DNA of 64,000 nucleotides. It comes from a bacterium. GTDB taxonomy: Bacteria; JAAXHH01. The stretch lies in assembly GCA_965202605.1 (NCBI GenBank), contig OZ241838.1:528883-592882 (forward strand), read 5' to 3'. Numbering within the stretch: the first letter of the stretch is position 1; the number at the start of each line of letters is the position of its first letter. Positions 1 to 43,846 of this stretch are shown here, in pieces. The notes under the pieces were generated by a model, which was given only the letters and a program-made list of their open reading frames with translations, was not told where the DNA came from and did no database searches. Position numbers and translations under genes: made by a program.

Positions 1-1
1 G

Positions 2-4729: not shown

Positions 4730-4775
4730 AGGAGAACGTGGACTCCCGCCGGGTTCTGATCGAAAACGCGGTGCC

Positions 4776-6635
4776 TTACTGGTACATCTGGTCGGCGGGC
4801 TCGACCCACCACTCCTGCGTCACGGCGCCGGCGGGATACCAGTTGACGCCGTGATACCGCCGGCTGTACGCGCTGGCTACCCGTGACTTCCAGAGAAAGG
4901 TATAGGGCTGCTCCTCGTGAAGGATCTCCTGGAATCGGCGGTACATTTCGATCCGCCTGTCCATGTCGAATTCCTTCCGGTAGGCCGTAAGGATCGCATC
5001 CGACTCGTCGTTCCTGAAACTGATGAAGTTGGATCCGTTCCCCTCGATCTGGGACGAGTGCCAGATCTGGTAGGCATCGGGCGGGAAGCGCAGGCCCGTC
5101 CCGCCGGTCCAGCCGAGGGTGACGGCCGCGAAGTCCTTGTTCTTCACCCTTTCCAGGAAGATGGACCAGTCCAGTTCGCGTACCTGGCAGTCGATGCCGA
5201 GGTCTTCCAGGGCGCTCTGCAGGGTCAGCGCTATATCCTTCCTGAGCTGATTGCCCGAGTTTACGAGAAACTCGAAGCGGAAGGGGGTCCTTTCGCCGTC
5301 GATCTCCCTGTCGAGAATCCCGTCGTTGTCGGAGTCCGTCCATCCGGCGTCATTCAGAATCGCCAGGGCCCGGTCGGGATCGAAGGCGTACGGCTGAAGG
5401 TCGTGATTGTACTCGGGACGGAACTTGTGGATTGGACTTTCGACTGTCTCCGCGAGCCCGAAGAGCAGGTTGCGCACCATGGCTTCCCGGTCGGTGAGGT
5501 GGGTCATCGCCTGGCGGACCCGCCGGTCCCGGAAAATGGGATGTTCGTTGTTCCATCCTATGTACGTGTAGCCGCCCGCGTACTGAATGCCCTTCATGAA
5601 TCGGTCCACGAAGCCGGGCGACCAGCTTTTCTCCTTGAACTCCAGCGGCTTCAGGCTGTGGATATCCAGGTTGCCGTTGGTCAGTTCGATGAACGCGGCG
5701 TCCTGGTTGTTTATGATCTTGAAAACGACCTTGTCCATGTGACCGGCGGCGGGAAGTCCGTCTACGTCCCGGCCCCAGTAGTTCTCGTTGCGGCTGAGCA
5801 CGACCCGCTGACCGGTGACCACGTCATCCTCCCAGTCCGCAACGGCATAGGGACCCGAACCGAGCATGAGACGGTTGAAGTCCTGGTTGAAGCGTTCTCC
5901 GAAGAGACGCACCCGGTCCGCGTGTTCCCCTGCTTCCCAGCTGCCGTCTATCAGGCTCGTGATCGGCACCGGGTCCAGCAGTCCGTCCGGGTCGTAGAAG
6001 TGCCTGGGCAGGATGCCGAAACTGCCGAGGAAGAGATCGTTCAGTATATAGGGTTCCCTGCATTCGAAACTGATCTCGTAGTCGCCCAGTTTCCGGACGT
6101 TGACGATGGATGCGTAGTAGTTTCGCAGGTGCGGCGCCCGTACAGTGGGCGTCAGGATGGTCTTGATGCTGAAGAGTACGTCGTCCGCCGTAAGGGGCAC
6201 GTCATCGGCGAACCGGACGTCCTGGCGCAGGGTGAACGTATAGGTGAGATAATCGTCCGACACGACGGGATAGCCCACGGCGATATATCCCCGCTGCGCG
6301 TAAGGTGGATCATAGTCCGGCTCCAGCAGGGACTCGAAGACGTAGATGTGTACCTGGGTAGCGCCCTGGTCGCTGGAAGTATACGGGTTGAAGTTCTCGG
6401 GGTCGGACAGCGCGTGGCGCACCATCCAGTCGCCGAATACGGGATCGTCCATCCCATCGTACTTGAGCGCCGCCTTTTCCGTACCGTCCAGCACGACGAT
6501 ATCCTTCGACTCCGACAGGATCGTCTGGACCCTGTTCCAGGGATCTTCTGTCGTTTCGCCGCCGCCGCAGGCGATCTGAGTGGCGAACAAACAAATTGCA
6601 ACAGTCTTTGCCGCGGTACCGATGGTCTTGTGCAT
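4776..6635 (-). CDS. ABC transporter substrate-binding lipoprotein, family 5 (peptide/nickel)
   Basis: The ATG at 6635 is preceded by GGAGGA. Signal peptide with a lipobox-like LFATQIAC. The protein has the length and overall look of an SBP_bac_5 protein and heads the permease/ATPase operon. The ORF-track extension to 7019 overlaps the neighbouring dehydrogenase gene. Confidence 0.85.
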   Translation of the reverse strand: MHKTIGTAAKTVAICLFATQIACGGGETTEDPWNRVQTILSESKDIVVLDGTEKAALKYDGMDDPVFGDWMVRHALSDPENFNPYTSSDQGATQVHIYVFESLLEPDYDPPYAQRGYIAVGYPVVSDDYLTYTFTLRQDVRFADDVPLTADDVLFSIKTILTPTVRAPHLRNYYASIVNVRKLGDYEISFECREPYILNDLFLGSFGILPRHFYDPDGLLDPVPITSLIDGSWEAGEHADRVRLFGERFNQDFNRLMLGSGPYAVADWEDDVVTGQRVVLSRNENYWGRDVDGLPAAGHMDKVVFKIINNQDAAFIELTNGNLDIHSLKPLEFKEKSWSPGFVDRFMKGIQYAGGYTYIGWNNEHPIFRDRRVRQAMTHLTDREAMVRNLLFGLAETVESPIHKFRPEYNHDLQPYAFDPDRALAILNDAGWTDSDNDGILDREIDGERTPFRFEFLVNSGNQLRKDIALTLQSALEDLGIDCQVRELDWSIFLERVKNKDFAAVTLGWTGGTGLRFPPDAYQIWHSSQIEGNGSNFISFRNDESDAILTAYRKEFDMDRRIEMYRRFQEILHEEQPYTFLWKSRVASAYSRRYHGVNWYPAGAVTQEWWVEPADQMYQ

Positions 6636-6706
6636 ATCTAGGTTCCTCCAAGCGTCTCCGGCGCATGCTGAACCGTCCGCGCGCGTTCCGGCAGACTTCC
6701 GGGCGA

Positions 6707-7696
6707 TTATCTGCCCGGGCCCTTTTCCTCGAAATCGATGACGATCTTGATGCACTCGCCCTTGCGCTTCGTGGCCATTTCGAAGCCTTCCTGTACCCGG
6801 GCGAAAGGCAACTTGTGCGAGATCATTGGCGCGAGATCCACGCGTCCTTCCCCGATCAGTCGCATGGCGCTTTTGAAATCGGTTTGTATATCCGGTCCCA
6901 CGGAAGTCGTAAGCTGCAGGTTTTTCCGGAACAGATCCAGCACGTCGACCGTGAAACGCGGAGTCTTGGGCACGCCGAAGTCGATGAAACGGGCTTTGTG
7001 CCGGGCCAGCTTCACGCACAGGTTGAACGTCTCTTCCACGCCGACGACCTCGATTACCACGTCGGCCATCCGCCCCTCCGTGATTTCGGCAACCGCCTCG
7101 GACGGATCGGTGTGCCGCGTGTTCACCGTATGCGTCGCGCCCATCTCGCGGGCCGCGGCGAGACGGTTGTCGTACTGGTCGATACCGATGATCAGCGCCG
7201 CGCCTAGGTTCCGCATCAAGGTGGTGAACAGCAGCCCCATGGGCCCCTGGCCGACCACGGCGACCTCGGCGTCGAAGAAGTGGCCCAGTTTCCGCAGACA
7301 GCAGATCACGGTACCGAGGGGCTGGGCCATCAACAGCTGCTCCCGGGGCAGTCCCACCGGCAGGGGAGTCACGGAATCGCCGAGTCCAAGGAAGTACTCG
7401 GCCATGGCGCTCGAGCCGGATGGCAGGGCCAGTACGAGATCACCTTCCCCGCATCCATTCGACCACGATTTTTCGATGACCCCGATACTCTCGTGCAGGG
7501 ATACGCCGGGCGGCGCGGGATAGTTTGCCGGGCCTGTAAACAACGGATGGTCGCTTCCGCAGATGGCGGCGTTTACGGTACGCACGAGCACCAGGTCCTT
7601 CAGCCCCTCCGGATTGGTTTTTTCCAGCGCGAGGTCCGGCCGTTCCGCTTCCACGATTTCGATATGTTCCGGCGCGATCACCTGTCCCGCTTTCAT
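6707..7696 (-). CDS. zinc-dependent alcohol/polyol dehydrogenase (MDR family)
   Basis: GroES-like N-domain with the catalytic-zinc region CGSDHPLF. Rossmann motif VAVVGQGPMG. RBS AAAGGAA upstream of the ATG at 7696. Confidence 0.85.
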   Translation of the reverse strand: MKAGQVIAPEHIEIVEAERPDLALEKTNPEGLKDLVLVRTVNAAICGSDHPLFTGPANYPAPPGVSLHESIGVIEKSWSNGCGEGDLVLALPSGSSAMAEYFLGLGDSVTPLPVGLPREQLLMAQPLGTVICCLRKLGHFFDAEVAVVGQGPMGLLFTTLMRNLGAALIIGIDQYDNRLAAAREMGATHTVNTRHTDPSEAVAEITEGRMADVVIEVVGVEETFNLCVKLARHKARFIDFGVPKTPRFTVDVLDLFRKNLQLTTSVGPDIQTDFKSAMRLIGEGRVDLAPMISHKLPFARVQEGFEMATKRKGECIKIVIDFEEKGPGR

Positions 7697-7807
7697 TGGT
7701 ATTCCTTTCTGACGACGGATGCAATAAACCCTGGCAGGCTATCGGTGTGACTGCAAACGGTGTGCCTCGATCAACAGAAACCAGCATGTACGGGCGTGCC
7801 GGGCCAG

Positions 7808-7844
7808 GCGCCCGGTCGAATCCCGCGATACCGGGACCGGGCGC
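7808..7844. other. GC-rich perfect 10-bp hairpin (GCGCCCGGTC ... GACCGGGCGC), possible terminator or REP-like element
   Basis: Inverted repeat read directly from the sequence. It lies between the decayed binding-protein gene and the dehydrogenase gene. No T-tract follows on either strand. Confidence 0.3.
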
Positions 7845-7914
7845 ATCTTCCTGAATTTACCCACACAACGGGTATTGTCAAACCGAAACGGTCAGGGCTG
7901 CACGGGGCGTTCCG

Positions 7915-30271: not shown

Positions 30272-30311
30272 GGCAATCCGGACCGCTTTCAGGCAATCCG
30301 GACCGCTTTCA
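30272..30311. repeat. perfect 20-bp tandem duplication spanning the stop codon of the NHL gene
   Basis: GGCAATCCGGACCGCTTTCA occurs at 30272-30291 and again at 30292-30311. Confidence 0.95.
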
Positions 30312-32472
30312 ATCGATTATTGAAGTGATCGCTGACGAGCAGGACATCCTCACCGTAGAAACACAGGCCATGGGGCTGATTCAACGGCGCTTCCCGCGCC
30401 GCCGCGGGTCCGTCGTTATCGCCGTAGTTCCCGCTTCCGACAACCGTCTCAAGGCGTCCGTTCTCCGCGATGCGCCGCACCCGGTTGTTGCCCGTGTCGG
30501 AAAAGTACACCCGCCCCCGCGCGTCCAGGGCCAGGCCACGGGGAACGGAGATCGCGGCGCCTGACGCGTTGGCGCCGTCCGGGGAAAAGCCCGCCTGGCC
30601 TGTCCCCGCTACGGTTGAAATGATCCCGGTATCGCCATCCACCCGCCGGATCACATGGTATCGGTCGTCCGCGAAGTAGAGATGTCCTGAACCATCCACC
30701 CTTATGGCCGTCGGCGAACCGATCCGCGCCCGGATCGCCGGACCGCCGTCTCCAGAGCAACCCTGCAGGCCGATGCCCGCCACCGTGGTGATAATGCCGG
30801 TCCCGGCGTCGATTCTCCTGATGCGCCCGCAGCCGGCGTCGCCGATGTAGACGTCGTCGTCTGGTCCGTGGGTCACCGCAAGGACGTGCATCAGGCACGC
30901 GCCCAGGGCCGGCCCGCCGTCGCCCCTGTCCCACTGAAAGGCCGCGCCGGCCAGATTGTGGATTACACCATCCTGATCCACGCGCCGCACGTGGCCGTGC
31001 CGCGTGTCGGCAATGACGATTCTCCCCGCACGGTCCACCGAGACGTCGTGGGGATTCCCCAGGTGGGCGTCGACGGCCGGTCCGCCGTCGCCGCCGTAGG
31101 CCCGGGCACCAGTGCCGGCGATCGTCCGGATCACGCCGGTTCCCGGATCGATCGCCCGTACGCGCTGGTTCCACACGTCCGCGATATAGATCGTGCCGTC
31201 GGGGCCGACCGACAGGCCGCCGGGTCCGTTCAGGAATCCCGCGGCCGCGACCTCGCCGTCATGTACGCTCGTACCACCGAGCACGGTAGTGACAATCCCT
31301 GTACTGCCGTCGCATCGCCGCAGCCGTCCGGAGCAGTCGCCCCAGAACACCGTGCCGTCCGGCTCGGCATAGATCCCCGCTTCCACGGAATTGCACCGCG
31401 TGACGACACCCGGCAGGCCTTCTTCGCCGAAGCCCGGTTCGCCGGTGCCCGCAAGCGTGCGGACGATGCCCGTCTCCCGCTCCACCTTCCGGACCCGGAA
31501 GCCGTACTTCTCGCCGACGTAGAGATTGTCGCGGGCGTCCAGGCAGATGGCGTCCGGCATGAGCGTGCTTGCTTCCACGGCCGGCCCGCCGTCGCCGTTG
31601 GAGGCGCGCTGCCCGTTTCCCAGGACCGTGTCGATGATCCCGGTTTTCATATCGACCTTCCGGACGCGGTCGTTGGAATTGTCGCACACGTACAGGTCGC
31701 CAAGCGAATCGAAGGCGAGGTGCTCGGGGTGATTGAACCCCGCGTCGCGGGCCGGTCCGCCGTCGCCATGGTATCCACCCAGACTCAGGCCGGGGCCCGA
31801 GTACGGCCGGCTTTCTCCCCGTTCGGAGGGGTAATGTCGCGCGTGATGGCCGAAGACCGTCTCGACGATGCCGGTCTTCGCGTCAACGCGACGGATGTTG
31901 TTCGTCCACTCGCTGGAAAGGTACACGTTGCCGCCTTCGTCCACGGCCACGCCGCAGGTGCAGTCCAGTTCCGCGTCGAGCGCCGGCCCTCCGTCGCCGC
32001 CCCGGCCGACCCGGCCGTTGCCCGCGACGCGGGTGACGACGCCGGACTCGTAATCGATTCGACGGATAGTGAAATTGCCCAGGTCGGAAAGATACAGGTT
32101 TCCGTGCCGGTCCTGGTACAGGTCGTGGGGATGGCGAAACCGCGCTTCGGCGGCCGGTCCGCCGTCGCCCGAGTCTCCCGCGATCCCGTCGCCGGCGAAG
32201 GCATGCAGGATCCCCTCGCGGTCAATCCGCCATATGCGATGCCACTGGTAGTCGATTACGATCAGGTCGCCGTCGGGCCGGCGGACCACGCCCATGGGCC
32301 AACCCGCGTCCGCCTCCTTCGCCGGAATGCCGGCGCGCTGGCCCACGCCGGCCAGGACCAGGGTTTCTCCGGCGGGCAGGTACTTTAGTCTTTCTGCAAT
32401 ACGCATGCGAGAACGGAGTACTCCGGCGCTTGCTCTGCGTACCTGGACGGCGGACGACAGAGATCCGCTCAC
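30289..32472 (-). CDS. large NHL-repeat beta-propeller protein (about 11-12 blades)
   Basis: Periodic GDGGPA...A.f..P.gv..D..G..y.aD blades recur through the whole ORF. No obvious signal peptide. The start is uncertain; an in-frame ATG at 32406 is also possible. Confidence 0.8.
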   Translation of the reverse strand: MSGSLSSAVQVRRASAGVLRSRMRIAERLKYLPAGETLVLAGVGQRAGIPAKEADAGWPMGVVRRPDGDLIVIDYQWHRIWRIDREGILHAFAGDGIAGDSGDGGPAAEARFRHPHDLYQDRHGNLYLSDLGNFTIRRIDYESGVVTRVAGNGRVGRGGDGGPALDAELDCTCGVAVDEGGNVYLSSEWTNNIRRVDAKTGIVETVFGHHARHYPSERGESRPYSGPGLSLGGYHGDGGPARDAGFNHPEHLAFDSLGDLYVCDNSNDRVRKVDMKTGIIDTVLGNGQRASNGDGGPAVEASTLMPDAICLDARDNLYVGEKYGFRVRKVERETGIVRTLAGTGEPGFGEEGLPGVVTRCNSVEAGIYAEPDGTVFWGDCSGRLRRCDGSTGIVTTVLGGTSVHDGEVAAAGFLNGPGGLSVGPDGTIYIADVWNQRVRAIDPGTGVIRTIAGTGARAYGGDGGPAVDAHLGNPHDVSVDRAGRIVIADTRHGHVRRVDQDGVIHNLAGAAFQWDRGDGGPALGACLMHVLAVTHGPDDDVYIGDAGCGRIRRIDAGTGIITTVAGIGLQGCSGDGGPAIRARIGSPTAIRVDGSGHLYFADDRYHVIRRVDGDTGIISTVAGTGQAGFSPDGANASGAAISVPRGLALDARGRVYFSDTGNNRVRRIAENGRLETVVGSGNYGDNDGPAAAREAPLNQPHGLCFYGEDVLLVSDHFNNRLKAVRIA

Positions 32473-32694
32473 CAGGTGTTCTCATTCCGGGCAAAGGACG
32501 TGTAAACCGGCGGCGCCGGCAGGCAGCCGCCGAGTCATGATGGTACAGATTCCACCCATGCATGGCAACCGTTAAATGCAAATTGACACCGGCTCCGTGA
32601 CCGGTTAACATACCTCGCCGCACGACCGCACGGGCAACCCTTCCGGACATCCCTGGTCCGGGCGCTTTCGTAACGTTCCTGACGCCCCGATTTG

Positions 32695-33924
32695 ATGGAG
32701 AACATCCTGCTCATGAACTACGATTTCGACCAGATCATCAACCGCAACGGAACCAATTCGTACAAGTGGGACTATGTGAAACGGGACGGCGGCATCGTTC
32801 CGTGGGACGAGACCGACGCCAGCCGTCACGAAAGACCCGTGCTTCCGCTCTGGGTGGCGGACATGGACTTTCCGTGCCCGCAGCCCGTTGTCGACGCGGT
32901 GACCGAAATCGCCCGCATGGGCATTTACGGATACGCCTTCCCGCCGCCGTCCTACTACGACTCCGTGGTGAGATGGATGAAGCGCCGCCATGACTGGATC
33001 GTCGATCCCGGCACCATCTGCTTCACCCCGGGCATCGTACCCGCCCTGCACTTTCTGGTCTCCGCCTACACGAAGCCGGGCGACAAGGTGCTGGTGCAGC
33101 CGCCGGTGTACTACCCCTTCTTCAACGCCATCGAGAACCTGCAGACCCGGCCGGCGTTGAATCCGCTGCGCTACGAGGACGGCCGGTACTACATGGATTT
33201 CGACGACCTGGAAGCCAAATGCGCCGATCCCGAGGTGAAACTGGCCATCCTCTGCAGCCCGCACAACCCGGTCGGCCGGGTCTGGTCCGCGGAAGAACTG
33301 CGGCGGTTCGGCCGGGTCTGCATGGACAACGACGTGCTGGTCGTCTCCGACGAAATCCACTGCGACCTCATACTCGGAAGCCACACCTTTACGGCGTACG
33401 CCACGCTTGGACCGGAATACGAGGAACGGTCGATCATCTGCACCTCCCCCAGCAAGACCTTCAACCTCGCCGCCCTGCAGGCGTCGAACATGATGATCCC
33501 CGATCCCGACATGCGGGAAGCCTTTCGGCAGACCGTCCGCAGCGCCGGTATCTTCACCCTCAACCCCTTCGGCATCGCGGCCGTCGAAGCCGCCTATGAC
33601 CACGGAGAGGAATGGCTGGAGCAGTTGCTGGACTACCTGGAAGGCAACTTCCGCTTTCTCGCGTCCTTCTTCCGGGAGCGCCTGCCCCGGATAAAGGTCA
33701 TCGAAACCGAAGGTACCTATCTCGTCTGGGTAGACTTCACGAGCCTGGGCTTGGAAAAAGACGCCCTCCAGCGCCTTATGATGGAGGAGGCGCGCGTCTT
33801 TCTCGATGAGGGGTACATCTTCGGCCCCGAGGGCGAGGGTTTCGAGCGGATCAACATCGCCTGTCCCCGGTCGATCCTCGCCGAGGCGCTGGAGCGGATC
33901 GAGGCGGCGGTGAAGGGGTTGTAA
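32695..33924 (+). CDS. PatB/MalY-type PLP-dependent C-S lyase (class I/II aminotransferase fold)
   Basis: N-terminal YDFDQIINRNGTNSYKWD and the PLP-lysine context SPSKTFNLAAL. An ATG at 32713 is an alternative start. Confidence 0.85.
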   Translation: MENILLMNYDFDQIINRNGTNSYKWDYVKRDGGIVPWDETDASRHERPVLPLWVADMDFPCPQPVVDAVTEIARMGIYGYAFPPPSYYDSVVRWMKRRHDWIVDPGTICFTPGIVPALHFLVSAYTKPGDKVLVQPPVYYPFFNAIENLQTRPALNPLRYEDGRYYMDFDDLEAKCADPEVKLAILCSPHNPVGRVWSAEELRRFGRVCMDNDVLVVSDEIHCDLILGSHTFTAYATLGPEYEERSIICTSPSKTFNLAALQASNMMIPDPDMREAFRQTVRSAGIFTLNPFGIAAVEAAYDHGEEWLEQLLDYLEGNFRFLASFFRERLPRIKVIETEGTYLVWVDFTSLGLEKDALQRLMMEEARVFLDEGYIFGPEGEGFERINIACPRSILAEALERIEAAVKGL

Positions 33925-34177
33925 GACGTTGGATTTTGTTGTTTGAAACTTACTAATCTTGAATTTACAATACTGCATTCAGGTCTTAGAAGTGGATATT
34001 GTATCTCAAGTTTAGACGATTTCAAAGTGAATACATAGTGTATCTTACCATTAACGCGGACTTTAGTTTCGAGAATCCAATCTCCTTTTCGACTGAAGAA
34101 CATAAGACATAGAATAAACGCTACAGCGCAATCTCAGACTTTTTAAAGTGCTATCGGGTTTAAAAAGGGTTAGTCCG

Positions 34178-35356
34178 ATGCCATTCATCCAACGCATTCG
34201 CTTGGGCGGCCTGCTGTCGTTTCCTCCGGATATGGAGTTTTTCGAATTACGCCCCCTGAATGTCCTGATAGGTCCGAACGCATCAGGAAAATCCAACTTC
34301 ATAGAGGTGTTGGAACTCTTACACGCCCTTCCGGTGGATTTTTCCGCTGCGGTCCGGGACGGTGGCGGTGCAGAGGAATGGCTTTGGAAGGGCGATCATC
34401 CACCCGCCCCCGCGGCAATAGTAGTGGAAACCGGTCCGGGCATGGAAACCGGTCGTCCGTTGAGATATCGCCTGTCGTTTACCGCTGTGGGCCAGCGGGT
34501 CCAAATCCTCGACGAGGCCATCGAAGAGGCGCATACTCGGCAGGGATTCGAACCATACTTCTACTACACGTTTCAACAAGGACGCCCGGTGATCAATGTA
34601 CGGGCCCCAGGCGGACAAGTATCCGAGAGGCAGGTACAGTGGGATAATCCTTCGCTGGATCAGTCCGTTCTTGCCCAAAGAAAGGACGCTTATCATTATC
34701 CGGAACTTTACTGGCTTGGTTTGCGATTTCAGTCAATCCAGACGTTCCGGGAATGGACGTTTGGCCGTTATGGCTCGCTTCGATGGCCGCAACGCGCCGA
34801 TCTTCCGGAAAACTGGCTGCTTCCCGACTCCAGTAATCTCGCCATGGTTCTCAACTACATAGAGCATAACTCCGGCCTGGTCTTCAATGAACATCTGAAA
34901 CGGTTCTTCCCCCGATTCGAACGCATGTCCACGTCGATCTCGGGAGGCACCGTGCAGTTCTACCTGCACGAATCCGGCTTCGGCAGCCCAATCCCCGCAA
35001 CGCGGCTGTCCGATGGCACCATCAGATTCATCGCGCTGCTGGCAACTCTGCTTACCCCGACGCCTCCATCGCTGGTATGTATCGAGGAACCTGAACTCGG
35101 ACTGCATCCCGACGTGATGGCGTTGCTTGCCGACCTGCTGGTTGAAGCATCCGGCCGGATGCAACTCGTGGTCACTACGCATTCCGATGCCCTGGTGTCG
35201 GCGCTGACCAATCAACCAGAGGCCATCGTCGCCTGTGAACGCCCCGGGGCCGCCACCGAATTGCGTCGCCTCGACGCGACACGCCTGGCCGGTTGGCTTG
35301 ACAAGTATCAACTCGGCGATCTGTGGCGCATGGGCGAGATAGGGGCAAACCAGTGA
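34178..35356 (+). CDS. AAA_21/COG4637-like ABC-type ATPase (SMC/RecF-like head)
   Basis: Walker A GPNASGKSN (34271-34297), signature-like RLSDGTIRF, Walker B LVCIEEPELGLHP, H-loop VVTTHS. Lower GC than the flanks. ATG at 34178 after an AT-rich spacer. Confidence 0.8.
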   Translation: MPFIQRIRLGGLLSFPPDMEFFELRPLNVLIGPNASGKSNFIEVLELLHALPVDFSAAVRDGGGAEEWLWKGDHPPAPAAIVVETGPGMETGRPLRYRLSFTAVGQRVQILDEAIEEAHTRQGFEPYFYYTFQQGRPVINVRAPGGQVSERQVQWDNPSLDQSVLAQRKDAYHYPELYWLGLRFQSIQTFREWTFGRYGSLRWPQRADLPENWLLPDSSNLAMVLNYIEHNSGLVFNEHLKRFFPRFERMSTSISGGTVQFYLHESGFGSPIPATRLSDGTIRFIALLATLLTPTPPSLVCIEEPELGLHPDVMALLADLLVEASGRMQLVVTTHSDALVSALTNQPEAIVACERPGAATELRRLDATRLAGWLDKYQLGDLWRMGEIGANQ

Positions 35357-35532
35357 GGAGGATCAGCATCTACCTTGAAGGCGGAGGCGATACTGCCGGA
35401 TCCAGGGCGGCGCTCCGCACCAGACACGCGAGCGACCTCTTACGACGGATCGACGCCGGAAGTGTAAGGGGACGATGCCGTCACTGCCGGCTGCTGTTTG
35501 AGAGACTCGGGCAACTGGTCGACGCGGCTTGA
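35353..35532 (+). pseudogene. truncated DUF4276-like partner of the ATPase (59-codon stub)
   Basis: The start overlaps the ATPase stop (GTGA). The translation begins RRISIYLEGGGDTAGSRAALR, which I recall as the N-terminal signature of the small proteins that follow COG4637 ATPases. The ORF ends after 59 codons, 9 nt from the stop of the convergent Fic gene. No continuation is seen in the other frames. Confidence 0.45.
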
Positions 35533-35541
35533 GTTCCACCA

Positions 35542-37158
35542 TCACGCGTTTTTGTCCCGTATAGACCGGCGGTCCACCTCTACCATAAAACAACGACAGA
35601 TTGTTTCGACTGTATAGTCAATGTCAGGGTCTGCGTTATTCAGTTCGGAATAGGGTATGGATCGGCTTAAACCCGGAACCAACTCAGTATCGAGCATTAC
35701 TTCAAATCCTAACGTCCCAATGCCCAGTTTCCACGCGATAGACATTTTCAAATCAAATCCCTGATTCCGTACGCCATTGTATCCGTTGAAACTATATTGT
35801 ACTCCAAACTCGATTCGCTGTTTATTGCTTAATGTGAAGCCTGGCTTTAAGATGTACTCGTCCTTTATCGAACCCCACCCTTTTGCATCAAGCACACTAC
35901 CACCAGAAACTTTTCTGCGCTCGCTCGTCCTCACGTAGTGTTGGCCCGAGTAGCTGTTAAACAGTTCGGATCCGTACCGTTCGCAAAGTCCGTCCAGTTT
36001 TTCGATTATCGGACTGACGAACCGAAAGTACGCCAGATCCAACACCTCAACGTCCGACGGGTTGGGCGCCGGTCCCTTCTTGCTTCTGATGAAGAGTTCC
36101 ATCTCTTTGTCGATATCTTCGGACTCACGAATCGATTCGCCCTTCGCGGCCCGAATCCCCAGGTCCAGCGACCATATCACGTTATCCAACATGAACCGGG
36201 CAAGCGGCAGTATGTGACCTGTATCGGCGTTTTGAAGTCCGCTGATGTAGCGGTCTCTTTCTACGCTTTTGATGACGATTGGGGGGAGGTCATTCCGAAG
36301 CAGCACGTAGTTTGCGATCAGTCTTGCCGTTCTTCCGTTCCCGTCATCAAACGGGTGGATGCGAAGGAATCCATGGTGTGATTCCGCCAGAAACATGGGC
36401 AATGGATACGCCTCCCTTGCCAGGTCGCGTCGGAAATCGCGGATCCATTGCGCCATCAACAGGGGTGTTTCTTCCGGTTCGGCGAATCGATACAACTCCC
36501 CCGTTGCGGTTCGCACGTGATTCGGTTGCGTTTTGTATTGACCCGGGATAATGCGCTTTCTCGTCGGTTGGCCGGCTGGCGTGATCGCGGTTTGCCAGAA
36601 CGGTTCCTTGAGGAGGATCTTGTTCAGATCCCTGACGTCCCCCTCCGTCAGTACCTGATCGTCGCCAGCGAGACGCCGCGTGTGTTCGATCGCGACGTTG
36701 TGCGCCTTCATCTCTTCATAATCCCTTAACGGATGACCTCCGCTGGTGCGATCATGAAGGAGCAGCAACTCCGTCTCCTGATAAGTAAGCGTGTTGCCTT
36801 CGATGTGATTGCTGTGGTAGTTCCACTCCATTCTTAGTTTGGACCAGAGTCGTTCATCGTCTTCGTTCCGCGTCTCCCTGCGTCGATCATTCCATTCTGA
36901 AACCATCCTGTCCAGATCCGCCAGACGTTCAAACAACCGGACGTATTCAAGGGAAAGGTCCGGGACGTCGATAGCGTGCGAACGGGATTCAGCGATCCAG
37001 TCCGCGATACGATTTCTGACTTCGAACTCCGCAGAGAGGACAGGGAGTGCGTCGGACTCCACGGCATATCGTCCATATTTCGGATGCTCGACGATTACAC
37101 GGTCCCTATCTTCGACGATCTCGGCCAATTCTCCCGTGACAGGACAGTTACGTTTCAC
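35542..37158 (-). CDS. Fic family protein (putative AMPylase) with an N-terminal auto-inhibitory motif and an extra C-terminal domain
   Basis: Fic core motif HPFDDGNGRTARL (36301-36357). Inhibitory-helix motif S-N-H-I-E-G (36793-36813). About 95 aa before and about 190 aa after the Fic fold have no recognisable motif. GTG start with AGGGAG upstream. GC is lower than background. Confidence 0.85.
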   Translation of the reverse strand: MKRNCPVTGELAEIVEDRDRVIVEHPKYGRYAVESDALPVLSAEFEVRNRIADWIAESRSHAIDVPDLSLEYVRLFERLADLDRMVSEWNDRRRETRNEDDERLWSKLRMEWNYHSNHIEGNTLTYQETELLLLHDRTSGGHPLRDYEEMKAHNVAIEHTRRLAGDDQVLTEGDVRDLNKILLKEPFWQTAITPAGQPTRKRIIPGQYKTQPNHVRTATGELYRFAEPEETPLLMAQWIRDFRRDLAREAYPLPMFLAESHHGFLRIHPFDDGNGRTARLIANYVLLRNDLPPIVIKSVERDRYISGLQNADTGHILPLARFMLDNVIWSLDLGIRAAKGESIRESEDIDKEMELFIRSKKGPAPNPSDVEVLDLAYFRFVSPIIEKLDGLCERYGSELFNSYSGQHYVRTSERRKVSGGSVLDAKGWGSIKDEYILKPGFTLSNKQRIEFGVQYSFNGYNGVRNQGFDLKMSIAWKLGIGTLGFEVMLDTELVPGLSRSIPYSELNNADPDIDYTVETICRCFMVEVDRRSIRDKNA

Positions 37159-37287
37159 CAGATCGACTCCCTGCGGCGAAGAACCAACATAAACCCCACG
37201 CTCATGATTCCGATCTCTTTTAGATAACCCACCGGCTTTCAGATAAGCAAGCTCGTTTTCCAGTCTGTCGGACGCTCCGTAATACGC

Positions 37288-38760
37288 CTAATTCCCATTC
37301 CTTTCCTGCCGCACTGTATCTCGCCTCCCCGCCCAACTCACGCACACCCCCACGATCACGTTGAGCGCCAGGCCCAGCACGCCGGCGTGCCATCCCCAGA
37401 CCTTGCCCAGGCCCGCGAGGGTCAACCCGGCCGCCAGCAACGTGCCCGCGGCCATGCCCGCGGCCGCCCCTTTCGCGTTGAATCGCGGCCAGAGCACCCC
37501 CAGCACGAACAGCGGCGCGGTCTGGATCAGCACCTCCATTTTAAGCTCTATGAGTCCCCACAGGGTAAGGTCCGGGGTCAGCGCGATGAGGACCAGGATG
37601 GCCATGATGGCCCAGGAAAGGCGCTTCCCCCACGCGGTAAGGCGCGCTTCAGGGAGCGATCCCATCCGGAAACTGCCCAGGACATCCTTGACGAGCAGGG
37701 AGGAGAGGCTGAGCAGGACGGAGTCGGCAGTCGACATGATCGCCGCGACGATGCCGGTGAGTACAAGCACGGTCATGACGTACAGCCAGAGGGATTCCGC
37801 GGCCCATGCGCCGAGCAGCCGGGGCATCACCTGGTCGGTGGCGACGCCTTCCAGGCCCGTCAGCTGGGGGATGGCCAGGATGCCTACCAGGACCACGGCC
37901 GAGATGGTGACCAGGGGCATGAAGGCCATGAGGGTGAACGACCGTTTCAGGCTATGGGCGCTCCGGGCCGCGAAGATGCGCTGGACCGCCTGGGGATAGA
38001 CGGCGGCGGCGAAGCCCACGAGCAGGATCGTGCTGATCCACGTGCGGATCGTGTCTCCTCCCGGGAGCGCGGCCTTCGCCGGTTGATGGGCGATGATCCA
38101 GGCCGTTGCCTCCCCCAGCCGGTCACTGCCCGCGACAACGGCGGCCAGCATCCCGAGCAGACCCGCGAAGAGGAGCAGGCCCTGGATGCAGTCGGTCCAG
38201 GCCACGGCCTGCATGCCGCCGAGGGTCTCGTAGAACAGGATGATGACGCCCAGGACCACCACGCCCGCCCAGAATGGGAGGGCCCCGCCGGAAAGACCGG
38301 AAACGATGTGCCCCACGGCCAGGAGCTGCGCGAGCAGGTAGTTGGCGATGGCGACCACGAACAGTACACCGGCGAAGAGGGTCAGGCGGGTGGATCCGAA
38401 CCGGTGGGTGATCCAGTCGCCGGGCGTCACGAAGTGCCACTGGCGGGACGCGCTGTAGAGCGGCGGCGCGAACAGCAGGTAGGCCACCACGATGGACATC
38501 ATGAACCCGATGCTCATGATCCACGCGTAGCCCAGCCTGTAGGCCTCGCCGGGATAGCCGATAAGCGTGTTGCCGCTGTACTGGGTCGCGTAAAGCGTGA
38601 AGAAGAGGACCAGCGCGCCCAGGTTCTTGCCCGCCAGGTAGAAGGACGACATGGAGTTGTCCCGGCGGCGGGCCCGGGCCACGTATCCCAGGACGATCAT
38701 GAGGGCGAGGTACGCGGCCAGGAACAGGAGCGCGCCGGGGCCGTAGGGCTGGTCCGCCAT
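37288..38760 (-). CDS. sodium:solute symporter (SSF) family transporter
   Basis: 490 aa, about 13 hydrophobic helices, with SSF-like N-terminal region (YLAGKNLGALVLFFTLYATQYSG). Confidence 0.9.
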   Translation of the reverse strand: MADQPYGPGALLFLAAYLALMIVLGYVARARRRDNSMSSFYLAGKNLGALVLFFTLYATQYSGNTLIGYPGEAYRLGYAWIMSIGFMMSIVVAYLLFAPPLYSASRQWHFVTPGDWITHRFGSTRLTLFAGVLFVVAIANYLLAQLLAVGHIVSGLSGGALPFWAGVVVLGVIILFYETLGGMQAVAWTDCIQGLLLFAGLLGMLAAVVAGSDRLGEATAWIIAHQPAKAALPGGDTIRTWISTILLVGFAAAVYPQAVQRIFAARSAHSLKRSFTLMAFMPLVTISAVVLVGILAIPQLTGLEGVATDQVMPRLLGAWAAESLWLYVMTVLVLTGIVAAIMSTADSVLLSLSSLLVKDVLGSFRMGSLPEARLTAWGKRLSWAIMAILVLIALTPDLTLWGLIELKMEVLIQTAPLFVLGVLWPRFNAKGAAAGMAAGTLLAAGLTLAGLGKVWGWHAGVLGLALNVIVGVCVSWAGRRDTVRQERNGN

Positions 38761-38763
38761 GGG

Positions 38764-38982
38764 CTAGCCGTCCTCCCGCCAGAACCTGTGGATCACGAAG
38801 GCGGTGAAGCACGCGATGGCCAGGCAGACGCCCAGGCAGATCACGACCCAGTACGGCACGCCGATCCACACGGGGACAGGGTCGATTTCCGGAAGGTACC
38901 AGGGAATGGACAGGGCGAACAGGGCCAGGTAAACGGCCCAGATCCACCTGGGAAACCGGTGAACGGAAACGGAAGGGCTCAT
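38764..38982 (-). CDS. small two-helix membrane protein (DUF3311-like symporter accessory subunit)
   Basis: 72-aa ORF ending 3 nt before the symporter start. It has two hydrophobic helices. This position is typical of the small subunit found with SSF transporters. Confidence 0.6.
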   Translation of the reverse strand: MSPSVSVHRFPRWIWAVYLALFALSIPWYLPEIDPVPVWIGVPYWVVICLGVCLAIACFTAFVIHRFWREDG

Positions 38983-38998
38983 GTAAGGACCCGGTTTT

Positions 38999-39847
38999 TC
39001 ACACGCGGACGTACTTGTGCACGAGGTTCTCCACGCCCACCTCGCCCACGTAGATGTCGCCGTGGCGGTCGACCCAGACGCTGTGGGCGCCGTGGGCACG
39101 ATCGATCGGCCCGCCCCTGACGACCCACTGGGCGATGAGCCTGCCGTCCATGTTCATGATGGTGACCCCGCCGCCCTCGCCCAGGAAGACCGTATCCTCG
39201 TCATCGACGAACAGGCCGCAGGGCGCGGGCCGCCCGGGCCATTCCGCGAGGAAGCCGCCCTCCGAATCGAAGACCTGTATCCGGTTGTTCGTCTCCCGGT
39301 CGGCCACGAGCAGGCGGCCGTCGGACGCGGGGAATATGTTGTGGGGGAGGGTGAACTGGCCGGGCGCCGTACCCTTGCCTCCCCAGGTGTGGACCAGGTC
39401 TCCCGAAGGCGTCATCCGGTGCACGTAGCATTGCCCGTAACCGTCGGAGACGTAGAGATCGCCGGAAGCCCCCTTGACGACGCGCGTCGGCATGTTGAAT
39501 GGTTTGCCCGGTTCGCCTGTCCGGTTCGGCTCGCCCAGCGTCTGCAGCAGCGTGCCGTCGGTCGAAAACACCCGGACGGTATGGTCTTTGCAGTCCGGAA
39601 TGAAGATCCGGTCCTCCCCGTCGATCCAGATCTCGTGGGGCAGGGCCAGTATGTCGTGACCCCATTCGTTCAACAGGCGGCCGTCCCGGTCGTAGACCAC
39701 CACGGCGGGATGCGGCTCCCGATCGACGACGTAGACCCGGTCCCGTGAATCCACGGCCACCGCCGTGGCGATGCCCAGCGTCCGCTCGGAACCCCATCCC
39801 GGCACCTTCTCGTAACAGTAATCTCCCGATCCCCAGATCATTTGCAC
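38999..39847 (-). CDS. six-bladed NHL-repeat protein (peptidyl-alpha-hydroxyglycine lyase-like)
   Basis: Repeated D..g.iyV.D..n.Ri..f blades (YVVDRE, FIPDCK, YVSDGY, LVADRE, FLGEGG, YVGEVG). An ATG at 39841 is an alternative start. Confidence 0.8.
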   Translation of the reverse strand: MQMIWGSGDYCYEKVPGWGSERTLGIATAVAVDSRDRVYVVDREPHPAVVVYDRDGRLLNEWGHDILALPHEIWIDGEDRIFIPDCKDHTVRVFSTDGTLLQTLGEPNRTGEPGKPFNMPTRVVKGASGDLYVSDGYGQCYVHRMTPSGDLVHTWGGKGTAPGQFTLPHNIFPASDGRLLVADRETNNRIQVFDSEGGFLAEWPGRPAPCGLFVDDEDTVFLGEGGGVTIMNMDGRLIAQWVVRGGPIDRAHGAHSVWVDRHGDIYVGEVGVENLVHKYVRV

Positions 39848-40091
39848 GTCCTCTCGAGAAACGAATCAGGGTTTGGCGTTCATCCCGTCCCGATCCAGTC
39901 CAACCTGGCACTAACCGGCATGGACAAACGGGTTTCATCGCGACCGTACTTCGTGTATATTCTCACGACCGATCCGGCAGTACCTGTGTTCCTGGAATCA
40001 CCTGCCTGGTTACAGTTGCCAGTACGCGGCCGGACCCCTCACGTCAGCGTCGACTGTCCGGTTTCAACTTGCAGATGACAGGAGCCATCTC

Positions 40092-40874
40092 ATGGGCGTA
40101 CTCGACAGCTTTTCACTAACAGGCCGCATCGCCGTGGTCACGGGCGGGGCGGGTCCGCAGTTCGGCAGCAGCATCTCCGAAGCCCTGGCCGAAGCGGGGG
40201 CGACCGTGGTCGTCGCTTCCAGGGACCTTGACAACAACCGGCGGTTCGTCGCCGGACTGAACGAACAGGGTCTCGATGCCCACCCCGAAGCACTCGACAT
40301 CACGAACACCGCATCGATCGACAATCTGAAACAACGCGTCATGGACCGTTTCGGCCGCGTGGACGTCCTGGTCAACAGCGCGGTGGTCGGCCGGGGCGGC
40401 GGATTCGACGAGCAGACCCCCGACTACTGGGCTGCCAGCGCCCAGGGGAACATGGTGGGGCTCTTCGCCCTGTGCAAGGCCTTCGTGCCGGTCATGGCCG
40501 GCCAGGGAGGCGGCAGCGTCATCAATATTTCAAGTATCTACGGCGTCGTCGCCAACGATCCGGGCCTGTACGAGGAGACCGGGATGAAGCAACCCCCGGA
40601 TTACACCTTTGTCAAGGGCGGCATGATCAATTTCACCCGGTACATCGCGAACTACTACGGTAAGCAGGGCGTACGGGCCAACTGCGTCTGTCCGGGCGGC
40701 TACTACAACGAACAGCCCGGACCGTTCGTGCAACGGTACGAGCACCGCGTGCCGCTCGGACGCATGCTGGACAACGAGGACCTCAAGGGCGCGGTCGTCT
40801 TTCTGGCCTCCGATGCGTCCAGGTACGTCACCGGGGTCTCGTTGATGGTCGACGGCGGCTGGACCGCGCTCTAA
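40092..40874 (+). CDS. short-chain dehydrogenase/reductase (SDR)
   Basis: Cofactor motif VVTGGAGPQFGSS and catalytic Y-T-F-V-K (YxxxK). RBS AGGAG. Confidence 0.9.
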   Translation: MGVLDSFSLTGRIAVVTGGAGPQFGSSISEALAEAGATVVVASRDLDNNRRFVAGLNEQGLDAHPEALDITNTASIDNLKQRVMDRFGRVDVLVNSAVVGRGGGFDEQTPDYWAASAQGNMVGLFALCKAFVPVMAGQGGGSVINISSIYGVVANDPGLYEETGMKQPPDYTFVKGGMINFTRYIANYYGKQGVRANCVCPGGYYNEQPGPFVQRYEHRVPLGRMLDNEDLKGAVVFLASDASRYVTGVSLMVDGGWTAL

Positions 40875-40954
40875 TGGTTCGTCTTTCAAGCAGGAGGCAG
40901 CCGCTCGCCCGGTAACGGTTCGGCGCTCCCCGCCACGGCGCCGTTCAGGACGGC

Positions 40955-41659
40955 TCATTGCTCCGGATCGACGATCGATTTGTCCTGGGGATGATAGTCG
41001 ATCGCCCGGCGGCCGTGGTCCAGGTCGTACATCCGCCAGGTACTGTCGGACACGCCGAAGACGACCTCGAACCGGATGCCGGGGTGAATGACCGCCCGTT
41101 CGAACACCCTGACGGCGTCCCCGTGGCTCAGGTGATGGGGATGGCCGGGCAGGTCCCGCTGCTTCTGGAAGTTGCCGATGCGCACGCACACGACTTCCAT
41201 GTCGAACCGCACCGCGTACATGTAGCCCAGGCTTTCCCCGAAGACTTTGCTGATGGAATAATAGCTCTCCGGCCTCGGGGTCATGTCGATCGTGCGGAAG
41301 ACGTCCTGCGGATAAGGCGCAAGCAGTCCGGCGCGGCTCGCGAAAGCGACGCGGCGCACGCCGTTGCGGCTGGCCGCTTCGAAGAGCGTGTAGGTCCCGA
41401 TGAAGTTGGCGTGCAGGATCTCCTCCCACGACGCGCCGCCGGACGGGTTGCCGGCCAGGTGGATCACCGCGTCCATGCCTTCCGTGGCACGAAGCACCGC
41501 GTCCATGTCGGTGATGTCGCCGACGACTTCGTCTTCCAGTCCGGGAGTCGGTACCCGGTCGAAGCCGCGGAGGGGATAACGGTCCTTAAGCCCGTTTACG
41601 ATGGTCGAGCCGATGACGCCGGCGGACCCGGTGACGAGTATTCGAGGTGTTTCGTTCAT
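40955..41659 (-). CDS. NAD-dependent epimerase/dehydratase family protein (short form)
   Basis: ILVTGSAGVIGS Rossmann motif and YSISK (YxxxK). The ATG overlaps the stop of the upstream enolase-superfamily gene (ATGA). Confidence 0.85.
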   Translation of the reverse strand: MNETPRILVTGSAGVIGSTIVNGLKDRYPLRGFDRVPTPGLEDEVVGDITDMDAVLRATEGMDAVIHLAGNPSGGASWEEILHANFIGTYTLFEAASRNGVRRVAFASRAGLLAPYPQDVFRTIDMTPRPESYYSISKVFGESLGYMYAVRFDMEVVCVRIGNFQKQRDLPGHPHHLSHGDAVRVFERAVIHPGIRFEVVFGVSDSTWRMYDLDHGRRAIDYHPQDKSIVDPEQ

Positions 41660-42882
41660 TCCGACTCCTTGCGCATGAATGGTCCGTGCCGTTCGATCCA
41701 GTCGCAGGTCTCCTGCCAGGACGCGCTGCCGTCCTCTTCCCAGATCTCCAGCCGCACGCCGCGGATGTTGCCCTCCGGAAAACCCGTCAGGCGGCCGACC
41801 GGAGGATAGCCGATGGTATGGTAGACGTTGCCGCTCGGCAGGATCAACTTGCCGATATGCCTTGGGATTTCGGTCTTCGGATTCCCCGCGATGCGCACCA
41901 GTTCCGCCTCGTCCACATCGACGCCGAGTCCGGGGCCTTCCGGCACCGGCGAGCTGCCGTCCGCCACCTCGATCCGTCCGCCGGTGACGTCCTCGCCGTA
42001 CTGGTCGTCCAGGTTGACTGAATGTATCACGTTGGGGATCACCGCGCCCAGGTGGAGCGCCATGGCCTTGCTGAGCGTCCCGCCGGTCAACTGGATCACG
42101 GTGGACACATTCGCCTCGGCGCAGGCGAAGCCCCGCTTCAGGCTCATGCCGATGCCGTGCTCGCCGACCATGTAGGCGTCGGCGCATCCGAGCGTAATCT
42201 CCGGTCCGCCACCAAGCTGCGGCACATGCATGAGCAGCGGGATCGACGTCTTCTCCCGCAGGCGGCGCCACCCGTCCACGTCGCGCCAGACCAGGGGGTC
42301 TTCGATCACGCCGACGACGGGCGACTTCTCCAGGTGTTCGACGATTCTCGTCACGTCGGCCGCCGACCGGTTGTGGTTGAAATCGTAGTGCATCAGGAAT
42401 CCGGGCGGCGCGACCGCCTCCACGGCGCTGTTCTGTTCGAAGACGTCGAAGTACGCGCAGGTGTGCATCTTGAATCTCATGTACCCCTCGTCCGAAGCGC
42501 GCACTACCTCGGCGGCCAGTTCTTCGGGAGAAGAAGGGCGCGTCCAGGCTGCAACGGTTACCCGGTCGCGGACCTTCTGTCCCATGAGCCTGTAGGCCGG
42601 TATTTCGAGGTGCTTTCCCATGAGATCGTAGAACGCGCCCATGAGACCCACCGGAAGATCGGCGTTGACGTGGTCGAAGGGGCTGCTGCCCGTCAACCGG
42701 TCTACGTCCCTGATGTCTATCGTGACGTGTCCCCGGCTTTCTCCGTATCCGACCACGCCGTTGTCCGCGGTCACTTTGAAGATCGTTTGCGTGTCAATGC
42801 CCCGGAACTGGACCTTCTGGTCAACGTTTCGCTCCGCCAGCCTGGGGTTGATGTGCGTAATCGCGATATCGGTGATTTTCAT
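41656..42882 (-). CDS. enolase-superfamily enzyme (mandelate racemase/muconate lactonizing family)
   Basis: N-terminal MKITDIAITHINP...VTADNGVVGYGES capping domain plus a barrel domain. Translationally coupled to the downstream epimerase gene. Confidence 0.85.
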   Translation of the reverse strand: MKITDIAITHINPRLAERNVDQKVQFRGIDTQTIFKVTADNGVVGYGESRGHVTIDIRDVDRLTGSSPFDHVNADLPVGLMGAFYDLMGKHLEIPAYRLMGQKVRDRVTVAAWTRPSSPEELAAEVVRASDEGYMRFKMHTCAYFDVFEQNSAVEAVAPPGFLMHYDFNHNRSAADVTRIVEHLEKSPVVGVIEDPLVWRDVDGWRRLREKTSIPLLMHVPQLGGGPEITLGCADAYMVGEHGIGMSLKRGFACAEANVSTVIQLTGGTLSKAMALHLGAVIPNVIHSVNLDDQYGEDVTGGRIEVADGSSPVPEGPGLGVDVDEAELVRIAGNPKTEIPRHIGKLILPSGNVYHTIGYPPVGRLTGFPEGNIRGVRLEIWEEDGSASWQETCDWIERHGPFMRKESE

Positions 42883-42973
42883 GGGTTTCTCTTTACGGCT
42901 ACGATGGATGAAATCATGACCGCCCTTACCAGAACTGAAGGGCCTCGCGCGTCAATCGGGTCCCCGCTGGTGC

Positions 42974-43846
42974 TCAGGCGTTCGCCAGCGACCTCGGGGC
43001 CCCCTCCTGGTTGACCCCGTCCCGCACGGTGGGTGCGATGGGCCAGTTCTGTCCCCCTCGCTTCACGTACTCGTCCTCGATACCGCACAGCCAGGTGAAC
43101 ATCCGCGCGGCGGCCAGCGCCCCCTGGAACTGTTCGAATACGCCGGCCGGTGGATTGAAGTCGATCGTGTTGAAATCGATATCGTCCTGCCTCACCCAGT
43201 CCCGCACGGGCGGCGTGGTCCGCCAGTAGTTGTATTTGAGCAGGTTGCGGTACGCGCTCCCGCCCCGGGGGCCCGAGGTGGCCCGCGACCGTCGGTGCCA
43301 GATCCCGTAGACGGTAAGGAAGATCGTCCCCGCCGGGGCGGCCGTAGACACGGTACCCCGGATGGAACCCAGGTGGGCCATCATGGGCGCCTTGTTCCGC
43401 ATGAAATGGGAGCCGGGCAGCACGACGGTCGGCCCCATGTCTTCGGTGCATTCCTCGGGGTAGTAGAACACCTGGAGGTACTCCAGCGCGGGGGTATAGA
43501 TCGTGCCGCCGTCCCGGTGCCAGTTCTGCGGCTTGTCGAAGGGCAGCGGCCCCCGGTGATTGCTGATGATGAGCGGCAGGGTGAAGTCCCGTCCCAGGAG
43601 CGACCGGACGGCGCCCGCGGCTTCCGGGTTCATGAGCACGCCGTCCGCGAAGAACGACTCCCCCACGATGGGCGTGGGCTCGTAGGTGCTGTCTTCGCGT
43701 TCCAGGTAGTCGACGACCCGTTCGTTGATCTCTTTCGGTACGACTTCCGGCAGCACCAGGTAGCCGTTCCTGCAGAAATCGATCACCTCGCGGTCCGTAA
43801 GTGTCGGCGCGCAGTCCATCTTCTTGCCGTAGGGTGCCGATGCCAT
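42974..43846 (-). CDS. phytanoyl-CoA dioxygenase (PhyH) family oxygenase
   Basis: N-terminal FCRNGYLVLPEVV, HxD context NWHRDGG, and a distal His in GIWHRRS. ATG at 43846 with GGAG upstream, 2 nt after the stop of the upstream small gene. Confidence 0.8.
   Translation of the reverse strand: MASAPYGKKMDCAPTLTDREVIDFCRNGYLVLPEVVPKEINERVVDYLEREDSTYEPTPIVGESFFADGVLMNPEAAGAVRSLLGRDFTLPLIISNHRGPLPFDKPQNWHRDGGTIYTPALEYLQVFYYPEECTEDMGPTVVLPGSHFMRNKAPMMAHLGSIRGTVSTAAPAGTIFLTVYGIWHRRSRATSGPRGGSAYRNLLKYNYWRTTPPVRDWVRQDDIDFNTIDFNPPAGVFEQFQGALAAARMFTWLCGIEDEYVKRGGQNWPIAPTVRDGVNQEGAPRSLANA

Follow-up and report, generated by a model that had tools for sequence, protein, structure and literature searches.

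A 64,000-nucleotide (nt) stretch of bacterial DNA (GTDB lineage JAAXHH01; assembly GCA_965202605.1, contig OZ241838.1, positions 528,883 to 592,882 of the forward strand), referred to here as the window and numbered from its first base, carries the gene of an ATP-binding cassette (ABC) ATPase followed by an open reading frame (ORF) of 59 codons. We conclude with high confidence that this locus is a decayed copy of HEC-01, a two-gene candidate anti-phage module in which the ABC ATPase HEC-01A is coupled to the DUF4276 protein HEC-01B, a predicted Toprim-like nuclease. HEC-01 stands for Hma-embedded candidate 01 and is catalogued in PADLOC-DB v2 (Payne et al., bioRxiv 10.1101/2024.01.29.577857). 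An earlier note, made from the same DNA, had regarded the pairing of such an ATPase with DUF4276 as one without a described function; it is the HEC-01 pair of that catalogue, the window ATPase matching HEC-01A at E = 1.9e-151. The module in the window would have lost its effector through deletion of the middle of the partner gene, while the ATPase gene has stayed intact.

The ATPase gene and the remnant of its partner

The features of the pair are as follows.

34178–35356, + strand: HEC-01A-type ABC ATPase, 392 amino acids (aa), intact; ATG at 34178 (alternative GTG at 34148), stop TGA at 35354–35356
34271–34294, + strand: ATPase Walker A, GPNASGKS, aa 32–39
35006–35020, + strand: ATPase signature, LSDGT, aa 277–281
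35078–35095, + strand: ATPase Walker B, CIEEPE, aa 301–306
35174–35185, + strand: ATPase H-loop, TTHS, aa 333–336
35353–35532, + strand: remnant of the HEC-01B/DUF4276 partner gene (the stub), 59 codons; GTG start on the ATPase TGA, stop TGA at 35530–35532
35353–35418, + strand: N-terminal part of the stub, partner codons 1–22, with strand β1 and the invariant Glu; aligns with 7176–7241 of the related locus L001
35419–35424, + strand: deletion junction of six bases; about 456 nt (152 codons, partner residues 23–174) gone, frame kept
35425–35532, + strand: C-terminal part of the stub, residues ~175–211 (the HASDLL...RCxHCxxLF helices) and native stop; aligns with L001 7704–7811 at 86% identity

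The ABC-type head that the earlier note had recognized is complete, with every motif in its place within the 392-aa ORF. A profile search of the kind that note had proposed returned Pfam AAA_21 (E = 3.1e-36) and AAA_15 (E = 2.8e-15) for the ATPase, and in the PADLOC scan the HEC-01A profile PDLC04177 was covered end to end, with residues 3–391 on positions 4–391 of 393. Matches to AriA (1.1e-34) and AbiLi (2.8e-21), and also to mad3, Old and GajA, followed well behind. Because the scores against SMC_N (30.1 bits under a cutoff of 40, over the N-terminal 45 residues only) and RecF (18.8 bits versus a cutoff of 172) both fall below threshold, the ATPase is by its profile scores an accessory protein of AAA_21/ABC type and not a housekeeping SMC/RecF/RecN protein, in line with the earlier assignment. 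It retains 137 of 138 near-invariant columns of its family. AriA of the PARIS system (8ux9/8v45) is its sole solved relative by sequence (E = 6e-4). Exact-sequence look-ups of the ATPase (in two start variants), the stub and the neighbouring Fic gene matched no record; P0246, a protein 100% identical to the ATPase, could not be located either. The variable insert region of the gene contains an exact 12-nt direct repeat, TGGAAACCGGTC, with copies 18 nt apart (34425–34454), which is probably trivial.

The sequence confirmed what the earlier note had described of the second ORF: it starts with a GTG at 35353 that overlaps the ATPase stop as GTGA, runs for 59 codons and stops exactly 9 nt from the stop codon (35542–35544) of a convergent Fic gene. 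Its product opens VRRISIYLEGGGD. An NTGA start/stop overlap occurs in 33 of 34 related loci and is a family feature. The stub matched PADLOC HEC-01B with E = 3.6e-7, residues 23–55 falling on profile positions 167–199 of 202, and Pfam DUF4276 weakly (E 0.11; 13.1 bits versus a cutoff of 30.2), on positions 161–191 of 192. That both matches fall at the C-terminal end of their profiles gave the first indication that more than a simple truncation had occurred. In the closest relatives, L001–L004, whose ATPases share 88–92% protein identity with that of the window (tblastn), a 211-aa partner starts on the ATPase stop, and these partners pass the DUF4276 threshold (75 bits) and match HEC-01B with 2.4e-65. 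The proposal of a translationally coupled DUF4276 partner is thereby borne out.

Alignment to these relatives located the lesion. By blastn, window 34150–35418 corresponds to L001 5975–7241 and window 35425–35532 to L001 7704–7811, up to the last base of the partner stop codon; by tblastn against close relatives, the stub comprises partner residues 1–22 and 174/175–211 in one frame. On these alignments, the lesion is a single in-frame internal deletion with native start and stop retained. The earlier note was thus right that the partner had decayed, residues 23–174 being lost, and wrong that it had been cut, for both gene ends are kept and the middle is absent. At the breakpoints in the relatives we found no direct repeat beyond 2–3 nt.

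What the deletion removed can be read from the intact partners. Alignments of 21 and 34 of these sequences share three conserved blocks, I-Y-x-E-G-G-G, L-L-V-D-x-E (D76, E78) and H-L-M-x-x-x-M-E-x-W-x-x-A-D, after which comes a C-terminal Y-H-K-x-x-H-A...R-C-x-H-C-x-x-L-F; E9 is invariant in both alignments and is kept in the stub. An AlphaFold2 model of the intact partner P0001 (mean predicted local distance difference test score, pLDDT, 92.4) has a β-α-β-α-β core with strands β1 (residues 3–10), β2 (42–49), β3 (69–76) and β4 (111–114), in which E9 ends β1 and D76/E78 follow β3. D76-x-E78, right after β3, would be the counterpart of the Toprim-type DxD acidic motif, and this whole region is absent from the stub. 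DUF4276, a homologue of Mad4, was placed together with RloB in the Toprim superfamily, and the E9/D76-x-E78 layout matches that described for Toprim domains and DUF4276 in the same study (PMC12065111); HEC-01B was also placed in Toprim by Payne et al. (bioRxiv 10.1101/2024.01.29.577857). A fold search of the P0001 model in BFVD returned an RloB-like protein as the best match (probability 0.99, E 1.5e-2, template modelling (TM) score 0.46).

The deletion takes out β2–β4 together with the LLVDxE (DxE) and HLM..ME.W..AD motifs and leaves the β1 Glu motif and the last three helices of the C terminus. Since the DxE and H..ME.W..AD motifs are gone, the stub product is very probably unable to adopt the Toprim-like fold or build its metal site, and the predicted nuclease is very probably dead. 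With 59 aa left of the full-length HEC-01B partner by which HEC-01 is defined, the window copy is a degenerate member of the system. The last helix region also carries a conserved CxxC (RCxHC; window 35473–35484) that gave weak matches to zinc-ribbon and Rad50 zinc-hook families in Pfam; having only two cysteines, it may serve in dimerisation.

Shared deletion, recurrent partner loss and selection on the ATPase

The same junction was recovered from two further assemblies. A protein search found P0121, 98% identical to the window ATPase and encoded on contig L117 (ENA ERZ25068511, 39 kb), which aligns with window 34041–43354 (9.3 kb, 96.3% identity). On this contig the junction is identical, the 59-codon ORF is open, and the Fic and symporter genes of the window follow on the right. 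Through P0248, from the protein cluster, we reached L118 (Logan SRR33343634, 2.1 kb), a gapless match to window 33769–35719 at 97.3% with the junction identical, the stub open and the left flank of the window also present. The spacing between the ATPase and Fic stop codons is 186 nt in all three. Because three assemblies from different samples carry the same junction, misassembly is excluded and the deletion is real, common to at least three genomes. Searches of the GTDB representative genomes and JGI metagenome contigs for the exact junction and for strain-specific strings gave no match.

As both the window and L117 carry the deletion, the differences between them arose after it. In the ATPase gene these are 21 synonymous and 9 non-synonymous changes, giving a ratio of non-synonymous to synonymous substitution rates (dN/dS) of 0.135 (binomial p = 2.5e-7 versus neutrality). 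Its dS of 0.076 is close to the 0.070 of the neighbouring symporter gene, for which dN/dS is 0.10. The orphan ATPase has been kept by purifying selection since the deletion, at least until recently. For the stub, dN/dS values of 0.12–0.23 against L001–L004 are uninformative: they span 57 codons only, and the same segments compared between intact partners yield 0.21.

Loss of the partner recurs across the family. An ATPase scan with one genome per species returned 36 loci, mostly in metagenome-assembled genomes (MAGs) of Latescibacterota, Vicinamibacterales, Binatia and Spirochaetia. Among the 34 loci with an uninterrupted ATPase, the partner is broken or absent in eight, each differently and through an independent lesion. 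What is left of it in these is listed here.

L006: residues 1–69 and 165–204, out of frame
L010: residues 1–155
L012: residues 1–41
L023: residues 114–204 only
L025: about 13 residues
L028: residues 1–24
L015: nothing; an unrelated 409-aa ORF follows the ATPase
L018: nothing; a HicB-like ORF follows the ATPase

A reciprocal scan with the partner covered the best 80 of 376 loci, of which 74 had a full-length partner and enough flank to judge; an intact ATPase lay directly upstream in 73 and a frameshifted one in the remaining locus. Partner loss (8/34) thus exceeds ATPase loss (1/74), with a Fisher p of 3.6e-4 in a statistic that ignores phylogeny. At conserved columns, orphan ATPases deviate no more than paired ones. 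Because the partner has been lost in eight of 34 loci through different lesions and the reverse is seen once in 74, with the ATPase under purifying selection, the decay pattern fits either of two situations: the effector may be costly or toxic when the ATPase is missing, or the ATPase may serve a purpose independent of the effector.

The surroundings of the related loci vary and are of defence type. The pair in L001 lies directly downstream of HmaB and HmaC, and in L117 HmaC is likewise directly upstream of the ATPase; the aminotransferase gene that borders the window locus is outside the fetched range in both. The pair follows an Avs2 gene (E = 0) in L002 and the gene of a 984-aa TPR protein in L003 and L004. 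Since L002–L004 share the aminotransferase flank of the window, the interval between aminotransferase and ATPase (window 33922–34177) is a hotspot whose cargo is exchangeable. In the window and L118 nothing lies there, and in L002 (1348–5887) and L003 (2306–5986) it is filled; the stretch of L117 compared with it was 1–7865. L117, the closest long relative of the window, carries three successive HEC-01-type pairs around HmaC (242–7769). The first is mad3/mad4-like, the second (PDLC04182/PDLC04205) is intact and the third is the deleted one; a DUF433 gene stands between the second pair and HmaC. Within the 64-kb window we found no Hma gene and no second DUF4276 gene, and the only defence-type neighbour is the Fic gene (PDC-S04/SoFic-like). 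The enrichment test near defence genes that the earlier note had proposed is thereby answered qualitatively, by Hma in L001 and L117 and Avs2 in L002. The defence-type context agrees with the discovery of HEC-01 through guilt by embedding.

The islet, its Fic gene and the divergent patch

The pair sits in an accessory islet of low guanine-plus-cytosine (GC) content, whose layout is given below.

33925–37287: low-GC accessory islet with the ATPase, stub and Fic genes; GC 0.39–0.63 inside versus ~0.65 in the flanks
32692–33924, + strand: housekeeping aminotransferase gene, left flank of the islet
37288–38760, − strand: sodium:solute symporter gene, right flank of the islet
33943–33971, + strand: promoter-like site TTGAAA-17-TACAAT in the AT-rich spacer 5′ of the ATPase gene (10/12 in a consensus scan; pattern match only)
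35542–37158, − strand: convergent Fic-domain gene, 538 aa; Pfam Fic 1.7e-15, PADLOC PDC-S04 3.1e-33, SoFic 4e-22
36331–36357, − strand: Fic active-site motif HPFDDGNGR
36796–36813, − strand: Fic inhibitory-helix-type motif S-x-x-x-E-G, upstream of HPFDDGNGR
35430–35914: divergent patch covering the 3′ remnant of the stub and the last ~124 Fic codons; 137 differences between the window and L117

No repeats, direct or inverted, flank the islet, no tRNA or integrase marks it, and the interval between stub and Fic gene held no convincing terminator. Two antisense ORFs within the ATPase gene (34733–35311 and 34319–34696, minus strand) were rejected as genes, their identity being 66–82% versus 88–92% for the sense frame. 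Less conserved long antisense ORFs are usual in GC-rich DNA. NHL-repeat proteins are encoded on either side of the region (30289–32472 and 38999–39847, both minus strand), and near their genes the GC-rich DNA contains numerous long antisense ORFs that overlap and are very probably spurious.

The Fic gene is a neighbour of the ATPase–stub pair and at most a candidate member of the module. Fic homologues lie convergent and downstream of HEC-01 in L010, L033, L117 and L118 and are absent from most HEC-01 loci. L033 has both an intact 214-aa partner and a homologous convergent Fic gene downstream, so the two are compatible. The homologue in L010 (9608–11213) is split over two ORFs, and that in L033 (8121–9137; 338 aa) matches only the first ~346 residues of the window Fic.

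The divergent patch stands out within the 9.3-kb alignment with L117. Most other bins hold 0–13 differences per 150 nt, and nucleotide divergence is ~24% inside the patch versus 1–2% around it; Fic residues 415–538 are ~50% identical between the window and L117, and residues 1–414 are 99% identical. L118, which elsewhere hardly differs from the window, departs from it at many patch positions where L117 does. This pattern suggests a recent recombination event that brought in a divergent allele of the Fic C terminus, the lineage of the window being the probable recipient. Because the 3′ part of the stub sits in the recombined patch, its substitutions are not interpretable. The left edge of the patch lies at most ~10 nt from the deletion junction; one possibility is that exchange with an intact-partner donor reaches leftwards only as far as homology does.

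Known systems, mechanism and alternatives

Among the systems compared, HEC-01 fits best: the window ATPase matches HEC-01A end to end, and the stub and the partners of the relatives match the cognate HEC-01B. The window copy departs from it in a B gene without residues 23–174, in the lack of Hma within 64 kb and in having a Fic neighbour instead. The earlier note had drawn parallels with PARIS, AbiL and OLD-type systems, and the profile matches sustain them at the level of architecture, the Old and GajA matches being weak. PARIS also consists of two genes, an ABC ATPase (AriA) and a separate small Toprim-type effector (AriB, DUF4435), and in it the nuclease is held by the ATPase scaffold until a trigger sets it free (PMC11464382); the HEC-01 partner, however, is a DUF4276 protein with no DUF4435 match, and the AriA score is far below that of HEC-01A. 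AbiL (AbiLi/AbiLii) and RloA/RloB resemble the pair through the AbiLi match of the ATPase and the RloB-like best fold of the intact partner, but their partner family is RloB and not DUF4276, and the similarity of fold is weak (TM 0.46, E 1.5e-2). Mad3/Mad4 of the MADS system likewise join an AAA/ABC ATPase to a DUF4276 homologue, Mad4 (PMC12065111), and the window ATPase matches NCBIfam MAD3 with E = 2.8e-21; at 76.2 bits versus a cutoff of 420 it is not an equivalog, and neither a methylase nor other MADS genes accompany it. OLD and Gabija GajA combine an ABC ATPase with a Toprim nuclease and gave weak matches (~1e-11), yet in these class 1 and class 2 OLD nucleases ATPase and Toprim are fused, whereas they are separate genes here, and the similarity is confined to the C-terminal lobe of the ATPase.

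By analogy with AriA/AriB of PARIS, and probably AbiL, the ATPase of intact HEC-01 copies would probably hold or license the nuclease. A phage cue would then lead the ATPase to release or activate it, so that nucleic acid would be cleaved and the infection aborted.

Several points weigh against this account of a defence module with a Toprim-like effector. Payne et al. reported that a HEC-01 representative gave no protection (bioRxiv 10.1101/2024.01.29.577857); a representative was later reported to protect E. coli B from one or more of T7, T5 and T4 (bioRxiv 10.1101/2024.09.26.614923), so that the family is a candidate for defence on its genomic context and one later positive report. The sensing and licensing steps are carried over from the analogous systems. 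As to the fold, a Foldseek search of the PDB with the intact partner gave nothing at E ≤ 0.001 and no Toprim protein in the top 50, a Pfam scan of 34 partners at E ≤ 10 returned DUF4276 and weak C-terminal CxxC zinc-ribbon noise but no Toprim family, and the partner alignment, used as a profile against PDB sequences, produced a chance match only (UBR2, E 0.64). The Toprim assignment is accordingly a prediction from motif layout, the RloB-like match and the literature. The asymmetry counts ignore phylogeny and come from overlapping samples chosen differently (all 36 ATPase matches versus the best 80 of 376 partner matches). Many of the genomes are long-read MAGs, yet all eight counted lesions are deletions or absences and none is a single frameshift. 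Purifying selection after the deletion presumes vertical descent.

Other explanations of the short ORF differ in what they would make of the locus. The earlier note had favoured a partner truncated at its 3′ end, possibly through insertion of a Fic cassette that replaced the effector end, a view to which the 9 nt between stub and Fic stop and the position of Fic inside the low-GC islet lend some colour. Yet the final 108 nt of the stub, stop codon included, align with the 108 nt that close intact partner genes, so the end is still present; the lost part is the middle, and L033 combines an intact partner with a homologous convergent Fic. We consider such truncation extremely improbable. An assembly artefact, a collapsed or mis-joined region, might be suspected from a single clean deletion in metagenome-derived sequence whose exact junction string is absent from the GTDB and JGI collections, but its likelihood is just as negligible, given that the same junction and 186-nt spacing recur in L117 and L118, which come from other samples and pipelines and are 3.7% and 2.7% divergent from the window.

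Two further explanations grant the remaining genes a function. That the ATPase still works, with a HEC-01B paralogue in trans or in a partner-independent role, possibly with Fic, has a small but appreciable chance. Its dN/dS of 0.135 since the deletion, its intact catalytic motifs and the equally good conservation of the orphan ATPases of eight other species all point this way, as do the two additional HEC-01-type pairs 4–8 kb upstream in L117, one with an intact partner, and the adjacency of ATPase and Fic in the window, L117, L118, L010 and L033. However, the 64-kb window holds neither a second DUF4276 nor an Hma gene, and the paralogous pairs in L117 belong to other HEC-01 subfamilies (27% identity to this ATPase), with which cross-talk is not expected; Fic, for its part, is convergent and hence not co-transcribed, and is missing from most HEC-01 loci. 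Clearly less probable is a functional 59-aa fusion peptide, for example a regulator that retains the ATPase-binding ends. The deletion is in frame, with ORF, coupled GTG and stop intact in all three deletion genomes, and the 3′ part shows 8 synonymous versus 5 non-synonymous differences (p = 0.007). An in-frame deletion nonetheless arises one time in three by chance, and 59 codons are expected to stay open at less than 4% divergence. The 3′ part lies in the recombined patch, where the pattern may reflect selection in intact-partner donors; in other species the deletions that removed the partner were out-of-frame, N-terminal, C-terminal or complete, and left no common mini-form; and, judged from the model, a lone β1 with three helices would be unlikely to fold.

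Decay of a HEC-01-type module remains the explanation that we prefer. Taken by itself, the locus is a single decayed instance of a candidate defence module that is already catalogued, and automated annotation would rightly flag it as incomplete. What interest remains is modest and comes from the effector being lost repeatedly and one-sidedly, with the ATPase retained under selection. Because the lesion is common to three genomes, it amounts to a natural experiment in which selection on the ATPase can be measured after effector loss, and that selection is still purifying. Matched alleles are at hand: L001 and L002 supply intact copies, and the window, L117 and L118 the deleted form. We would tentatively entertain, at rather low probability, that HEC-01 is a toxin–antitoxin-like pair with a constrained order of decay, in which the ATPase restrains a toxic nuclease and can be lost only second, or that orphan HEC-01A has a partner-independent function, possibly with the adjacent Fic; the 59-aa remnant as an ATPase-binding peptide is a further possibility. 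For a family whose defence activity is disputed, the one-sided decay thus offers a hypothesis, that of a toxic or costly effector restrained by its ATPase.

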